Source: Escherichia coli (lineage in GTDB: Bacteria; Pseudomonadota; Gammaproteobacteria; Enterobacterales; Enterobacteriaceae). Taken from it: 64,000 nucleotides of DNA. Positions 372 to 587 of the stretch are shown piece after piece. Below the pieces are notes generated by a model. The model saw nothing but the letters and a program-made list of their open reading frames with translations. It did no database searches and was not told the DNA's origin. The stretch lies in assembly GCF_016026235.1 (NCBI RefSeq), contig NZ_CP065613.1; one strand, given 5' to 3'. A program made the position numbers and the translations under genes. How positions within the stretch are numbered: position 1 is the first letter of the stretch; each line of letters opens with the position of its first letter.

Positions 372-587
372 TTACTCTCCCCGCGCAGCCTTACGCTTGT
401 CTTCTCTTATTTTGAAATACAGGTTAGTCAGATATGTCAGCAGCCCAAACAGCAGACTCCCCAGCACGCCTATTGCCGCCCACTGAGACGGGGAAACCCT
501 GTCCAGCAACTGCAGGAACCAGTAGCCCGTTCCCACCGCTGACGTGGTGTATGACACACCTGTTGTGATTTTTTCCATCTGGTCCAT
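372..587 (-). CDS. Class II holin (phage 21 S-type pinholin), 71 aa with Met1/Met4 dual-start motif
   Basis: Translation from internal Met of ORF 372..692: [71 protein letters not shown]; two TM segments and charged C-tail; near-identical in pattern to S21 holins as I recall them. Confidence 0.75.

Follow-up and report, generated by a model that had tools for sequence, protein, structure and literature searches.

The DNA analysed here, called the window throughout, is a stretch of 64,000 nucleotides from Escherichia coli (contig NZ_CP065613.1 of assembly GCF_016026235.1). Near its left edge, on the minus strand, it carried a holin gene, S (372..587), which was delimited from the ORF list and the sequence and assigned through Pfam and PHROG. 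The gene consists of 71 codons and a TAA stop (374..372, included in these coordinates) and encodes a 71-aa protein that starts MDQMEK. This protein matched the Pfam family PF04971 (Phage_holin_2_1, "Bacteriophage P21 holin S") at 111.9 bits (E 1.4e-32, against a Pfam cut-off of 26 bits), with residues 5-67 aligned to positions 1-63 of the 64 in the profile, as well as the PHROG holin families phrog_9876 and phrog_20. Among its 660 homologues, the PF04971 annotation was found on all 120 of those listed. NCBIfam had no model that matched the holin or YdfR, the product of the adjoining gene, and no Rfam match fell within 372..700. A preliminary description of the locus had proposed a pinholin-type lysis cassette at 372..587; the coordinates were exact and the pinholin-type reading agreed with the Pfam match. 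We consider it likely, with a probability of about 0.85, that this minus-strand ORF (372..587) is S from the late operon of a lambdoid prophage and that its product belongs to the class II holin family of phage 21 S (S21), the prototype pinholin.

The hydropathy curve of S could be superimposed on that of the S21-like protein P0076, with a weak first transmembrane domain (TMD1), a strong second one (TMD2) and a basic C-terminal tail. Mean Kyte-Doolittle values were 0.71 for TMD1, of which 50% is Gly, Ala, Ser or Thr, and 1.48 for TMD2. In an alignment of 15 members of the S family at 73-97% identity, with the S query included, G40, S44 and G48 of TMD2 were invariant, and in this numbering G40-x3-S44-x3-G48 is presumably the glycine-zipper-type motif of S21 TMD2. 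A glycine zipper is present in TMD2 of S21 68 (PMC9025707). Taking an identity of ~80% to S21-like proteins as the basis, S would be expected to function as a pinholin, a class of holin whose heptameric channels of ~2 nm depolarise the membrane yet do not let a cytoplasmic endolysin out.

Directly 5' of S, a terminator scan identified an intrinsic-terminator-like hairpin with a 12-bp stem and a U-run (617..654, minus strand). The hairpin itself (654..626) had a folding energy of -17 kcal/mol and a z score of -4.18, and none of 200 shuffled sequences was as stable. Late transcription would presumably need Q-type antitermination to read through this terminator; a gene for a Q antiterminator was found at 2274..3095 (PF03589), and the strong hairpin 5' of S is consistent with Q-dependent expression of the late operon. 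A longer version of the ORF, giving 106 aa from a GTG at 692, was rejected, as it would cross the strong terminator hairpin and its additional residues were not conserved; in longer database entries, the upstream residues were unrelated. Closer to the gene, a GGGAG at 599..595 lies 7 nt 5' of the first ATG, a good placement for a Shine-Dalgarno sequence, and the purine-rich GACGGGGU at 595..588 may be a second ribosome-binding site that serves an ATG at codon 4. RNA folding also predicted a small hairpin (CUUCCG-GAUAA-CGGGAG; 595..611, minus strand) that would mask the first Shine-Dalgarno sequence. This sdi-like hairpin was no better than its shuffles (z -0.87, with 41 of 200 folding equally well), so that the partition between starts cannot be argued from structure.

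On the other side of S lies a gene of the DUF1327/YdfR family (1..367, minus strand), of which the first 122 codons are visible before the window ends on its left side. These codons matched PF07041 (DUF1327) at 137.1 bits (E 2.3e-40; Pfam cut-off 25 bits), as anticipated by the preliminary description, which had read the next gene as DUF1327-type and not obviously a lysozyme and had placed the endolysin beyond the window edge. The start of ydfR at 367 is 4 nt past the S stop, and its ribosome-binding site was placed on a GGGGAGAG run within the 3' end of S, a position inside S that makes the two genes tightly coupled; ydfR is probably co-translated with S. In all cases ydfR lay within a lysis cassette. 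A 2026 paper (PMC13232886) reports that the K-12 YdfR interacts with RNase E, through the catalytic N-terminal domain of the latter, and that RNA is recovered along with purified YdfR.

The genes beyond the edge were read from contig JAALAC010000003.1 of GCA_014155105.1 (L004), which was found through an exact-protein look-up of contigs sharing the S holin. L004 was 100% identical to window 1..6587 without gaps, down to an insertion sequence (IS) that splits a dnaB-like gene, and it extends 5.6 kb to the left of the window edge. There, S (71 aa) and YdfR (176 aa) were followed by an antisense ORF of 88 aa, a lysozyme gene (177 aa), Rz/Rz1, a KilA-N gene and terminase genes. The canonical order is seen in E. 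coli EC32, with S, a YdfR of 116 aa, lysozyme and Rz/Rz1. Compared with EC32, the lineage of the window has an insertion of ~490 bp that begins at window base ~31 (window 1..31; L004 6557..7045), replaces the final ydfR codons so that YdfR grows from 116 to 176 aa, and also supplies the antisense 88-aa ORF between ydfR and the lysozyme gene. In the NCBI annotation of E. coli CFSAN029787, the long ydfR is listed among the pseudogenes. We rejected the reading of the long form as a junk fusion or pseudogene, because the 176-aa YdfR fits phrog_2091 end to end (1-176 of 183); together with a match of the 88-aa ORF to phrog_2572, this marks both as recurrent phage modules and not debris.

The lysozyme gene, R, starts 322 bp after ydfR, outside the window. 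Its 177-aa product matched PF00959 (Phage_lysozyme) at 84.9 bits and was homologous to PDB 4zpu (RrrD) and to 3hde and 3hdf, both of R21, the SAR endolysin of phage 21. The catalytic Glu-x8-Asp-x5-Thr triad (EG-x7-D-x5-T) was conserved, with EGNHTTAYRDGSGIWT of R aligned to EGVSYIPYKDIVGVWT of 3hde. At the N-terminus of R, MNVKIRYGLSAAVLALIAIGAPAP, K4 and R6 precede an 18-residue hydrophobic stretch rich in Ala, Gly and Ser, YGLSAAVLALIAIGAPAP (mean Kyte-Doolittle value 1.63; 50% Gly, Ala, Ser or Thr), a composition as expected of a signal-arrest-release (SAR) domain, by which the N-terminus appears SAR-like. In R, the AIGA motif is followed by Pro. Also outside the window are Rz (L004 7603-8040; 145 aa from its ATG; PF03245, 119.5 bits) and Rz1 (L004 7796-7987; PF06085, 72.4 bits), the latter with a lipobox-like LVVSAC. 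The Rz1 ORF is embedded in Rz in the +1 frame, which is the architecture of a two-component spanin, and PHROG calls for L004 agreed on an endolysin and Rz-like spanins. The lysis cassette is complete in L004, and the module is undecayed at the ORF level. Extending leftwards by way of L004, as the preliminary description had proposed, thus recovered the expected endolysin together with Rz and Rz1, and the decayed module that it had envisaged should no endolysin lie downstream is at odds with the intact lysozyme ORF.

The window as a whole was absent from a set of 5,426 complete E. coli genomes, in which window 1..1300 was matched over its length at 98.3% identity at best, from base 32 onwards. 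E. coli CFSAN029787 matched window 1..420 at 100% and carried a different prophage further right. Several other features were observed around the cassette. On the minus strand, a DUF1737 ORF (895..1098) and short ORFs at 700..1098, annotated by NCBI as fragments in relatives, correspond to DNA that in Stx-type phages is part of a SASA/NanS-type esterase gene, and look like a remnant of what lies 5' of S in such phages. A low-GC 111-aa ORF at 1344..1679 (plus strand) belongs to the IraM family of anti-adapters (NF007393, 162 bits, cut-off 121), matches Pfam PmrD in sister loci and is a moron in the prophage late region. Between it and a tRNA gene, the sRNA STnc100 was matched at 1705..1894 (minus strand; Rfam 132 bits, gathering score 47). 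That tRNA gene (2055..2130, minus strand), the only one there, lies downstream of the Q gene and has a CAT anticodon, for which ARAGORN gave Met; the matching position in E. coli EC32, by blastn coordinates, is annotated tRNA-Ile, which makes a prophage-borne Ile tRNA of the lysidine type probable. Further right, at 9008..9195 (minus strand), Rfam placed C4 antisense RNA (83 bits) next to isrK (64 bits), which suggests a P1/P7-type c4-ant immunity/antirepressor module in the prophage early region. Matches to the chromosomal sRNAs ES036/CssrF (23832..23874, plus strand, 45.5 bits), MicL (27811..28118, minus strand, 370 bits) and C0465 (44460..44537, plus strand, 112 bits) indicate that the window leaves the prophage for the core chromosome at or before ~24 kb.

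Within S, two in-frame ATG codons lie three codons apart, with Asp2-Gln3 in between. From the sequence and the family alignment, the first (585..587, minus strand; Met1) opens the 71-aa product, and the second (576..578, minus strand; Met4) a 68-aa product that is the counterpart of S21 68. M1 and M4 were invariant across the 15-sequence alignment, and positions 2-3 were the most variable of the whole protein. In 89 of the 120 best cluster representatives the N-terminus had the form M-x-x-M, and about 19 were called from the Met4 position; the remaining few were truncated or aberrant gene calls. MYQM was the commonest form among these 120 representatives (33), and the others were MKSM (23), MYRM (10), MLRM (6), the MDQM seen here (4), MNQM and MMKM (3 each), MHRM and MFQM (2 each) and MHQM and MKFM (1 each), with 5 that start MKM and are one residue shorter. 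When the window was compared with the locus L002, the ATG at -9 was retained although the adjoining upstream non-coding DNA differed. Invariant M1 and M4, hypervariable residues 2-3 and diverged upstream DNA together point to selection on both starts, and Met1 and Met4 are probably both used, giving products of 71 and 68 aa.

S resembles the S21 68/S21 71 pair of phage 21 in its product lengths (71/68 aa), in an identity of ~79-80% to S21-like sequences and in the Met1/Met4 dual start; it shares the two-TMD hydropathy profile, G40/S44/G48 in TMD2 and the same charged C-terminal tail, and it is likewise paired with a homologue of the SAR endolysin R21 and with Rz/Rz1. In contrast to S21, Asp-Gln stands here where Lys-Ser lies between the starts, so that the positive charge of S21 71 is replaced by a negative one, and ydfR (DUF1327) and the small antisense ORF separate S from R. 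The MYQM-type class II holins encoded by lambdoid prophages of E. coli and by Stx-converting phages were 94-97% identical to S and fell within the same 90% cluster, which has 985 members and whose largest members start MYQM. From MYQM to MDQM, Tyr2 becomes Asp2, and the first base of codon 2 differs (TAT in L002, GAC in the window). The same S-ydfR-R-Rz layout is found in E. coli prophages, in vB_EcoS-733R4 and in Stx2-converting phage 86, and annotations of the vB_EcoS-733R4 type read 'holin/antiholin component S' and 'putative YdfR family protein'. The exact MDQM protein occurs on 274 contigs and is annotated in RefSeq as 'MULTISPECIES: class II holin family protein'. S is an already catalogued protein of a known element type, and within the very common, uncharged MYQM clade its acidic MDQM variant represents a minor allele. 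Phage lambda offers a more distant parallel, as S105/S107 also comprise two membrane proteins from two in-frame starts, and N-terminal charge sets the topology of the first TMD (PMC6116005). Unlike S, the lambda protein is a class I holin of an unrelated family, with three TMDs, large holes and a Lys2-dependent antiholin.

By homology, lysis would proceed along the pathway of pinholin, SAR endolysin and spanin that is summarised in PMC9636201, PMC6116005 and PMC4749879. S would insert into the membrane with two TMDs, after which TMD1 (~residues 7-28), weakly hydrophobic and rich in Gly, Ala, Ser and Thr, would exit the membrane into the periplasm. The freed TMD2 (~residues 36-58, with G40/S44/G48) would then oligomerise into small pinholes and collapse the proton-motive force, and this depolarisation would free and activate the membrane-tethered SAR-type lysozyme encoded past ydfR, beyond the window edge, before Rz/Rz1 disrupt the outer membrane. 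We infer the topology of S, the formation of pinholes, the use of both starts and the behaviour of the long isoform from such sequence comparisons.

The prophage around the cassette is defective: an IS3-family element of 1264 bp interrupts the gene for a dnaB-like helicase (3720..4802 and 5971..6378). Three copies of this element were present (4754..6017 and starting near 15821 and 19413), each with a 100-aa orfA and a 272-aa orfB, the OrfB proteins being 99.6-100% identical; an IS load of this kind suggests a Shigella-like genome. In such a defective prophage the cassette may never be expressed, and it could be a decaying remnant without lysis function in this host, to which the interrupted replication gene and the pseudogene call on the long ydfR in one E. 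coli genome would both conform. Two sister genomes (L005 and L006) point in the same direction, having an IS1 insertion in or after ydfR, with everything downstream missing in one of them. We nevertheless regard a functionless remnant as quite unlikely, since the identical L004 has S, ydfR, R, Rz and Rz1 as intact, full-length ORFs with strong family matches, and since the fit of the 176-aa YdfR to phrog_2091 identifies a recurrent form and not a broken gene. The cassette is intact here yet eroding in its lineage. A second doubt concerns the dual start itself, for only one of the two ATGs might function, the M-x-x-M motif then being a conserved piece of the protein or an inherited relic and the holin a single species. 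Gene callers do disagree, as the representatives annotated from Met4 attest, and the GGGAG (-7.4 kcal/mol) is spaced well for the first ATG and lies 16 nt from the second, for which the second site is weaker (-6.3). However, an unused ATG would hardly explain why both Met residues stay fixed when positions 2-3 and the DNA upstream are free to change, and the S21 prototype makes both products, as PMC9636201 notes with reference to Barenboim et al. 1999. A single functional start is, in our judgement, very unlikely.

If both starts are used, the role of the longer product comes into question. The preliminary description had likened the dual start to holin/antiholin pairs, and as far as the ATGs three codons apart are concerned this holds, with M1 and M4 invariant, but what has been published on charge in S21 speaks against the longer product being a classical antiholin. 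It had also pointed out, correctly, that the residues between the starts (D and Q) are acidic or neutral and not basic; yet the uncharged MYQM is the commonest form among the 120 best representatives, so this trait is not specific to the locus. In phage 21, the delay of S21 71 comes from an extra positive residue (PMC4749879, PMC9636201, PMC9025707), and two further positive residues block translocation of S21 TMD1 (PMC4749879, PMC9025707). An antiholin of the S21 71 type would have at least one extra positive residue between the starts, whereas the extension here is Met-Asp-Gln. The net side-chain charge of MDQMEK is -1 against 0 for MEK, compared with +1 for MKSMDK and 0 for MDK in S21. In a substitution screen of S21 68, positive N-terminal charge delayed the flipping of TMD1 and negative charge promoted it (bioRxiv 10.1101/2021.04.20.440580). 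Since the extension lowers the net charge of the long form by one relative to the short form, the S21 charge rule implies that the 71-aa product would not be a charge-anchored antiholin; a classical charge-type antiholin is unlikely, and it is more likely that the long MDQM form would trigger as fast as the short form or faster. The 71-aa product could still act as an antiholin independently of charge, if three polar residues and a displaced alpha-amino group delay the exit of TMD1, and conservation of Met1 across MYQM and MDQM would then reflect an inhibitor function. This would accord with the retention of M1 in 39 uncharged, 4 acidic and 45 basic representatives among the best 120, for which no basic residue is needed. 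It would also accord with the slower activation and pore formation of S21 68 after polar uncharged substitutions at its N-terminus (bioRxiv 10.1101/2021.04.20.440580), by which Gln3 and the extra length could, in spite of Asp2, slow down the long form, and with lambda S107, where the deformylated alpha-amino group, and not a side chain, supplies one of the two additional positive charges (PMC6116005). Against this stand the attribution of the S21 delay to an extra positive residue, the promotion of TMD1 translocation by a negative N-terminus and the presence of Asp2, which gives the long form a more negative net charge than that of the short one; we judge such a charge-independent antiholin somewhat unlikely. 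The converse proposal, that the dual start of the MYQM/MDQM clade encodes no antiholin and that in MDQM the polarity is inverted, with the long form a trigger or accelerator and the short form the slower species, is speculative and in our estimate unlikely.

The locus holds a lambdoid lysis cassette of the textbook kind, in a defective prophage of an IS-rich Escherichia/Shigella genome, and the chief value of the analysis lies in its correct annotation. One residual functional question is the role that the first, conserved start plays where an allele has no basic residue. An inverted polarity in MDQM, if true, would constitute a natural 'reverse' dual-start lysis clock, and the two starts would then be selected for reasons besides charge-based inhibition. 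Across the S21 family, the starts are invariant, yet what lies between them can be basic, neutral or acidic, and the explanation of the antiholin by an extra positive charge cannot apply to the commonest natural alleles. The uncharged and acidic alleles lend themselves to tests of the charge model of pinholin timing.
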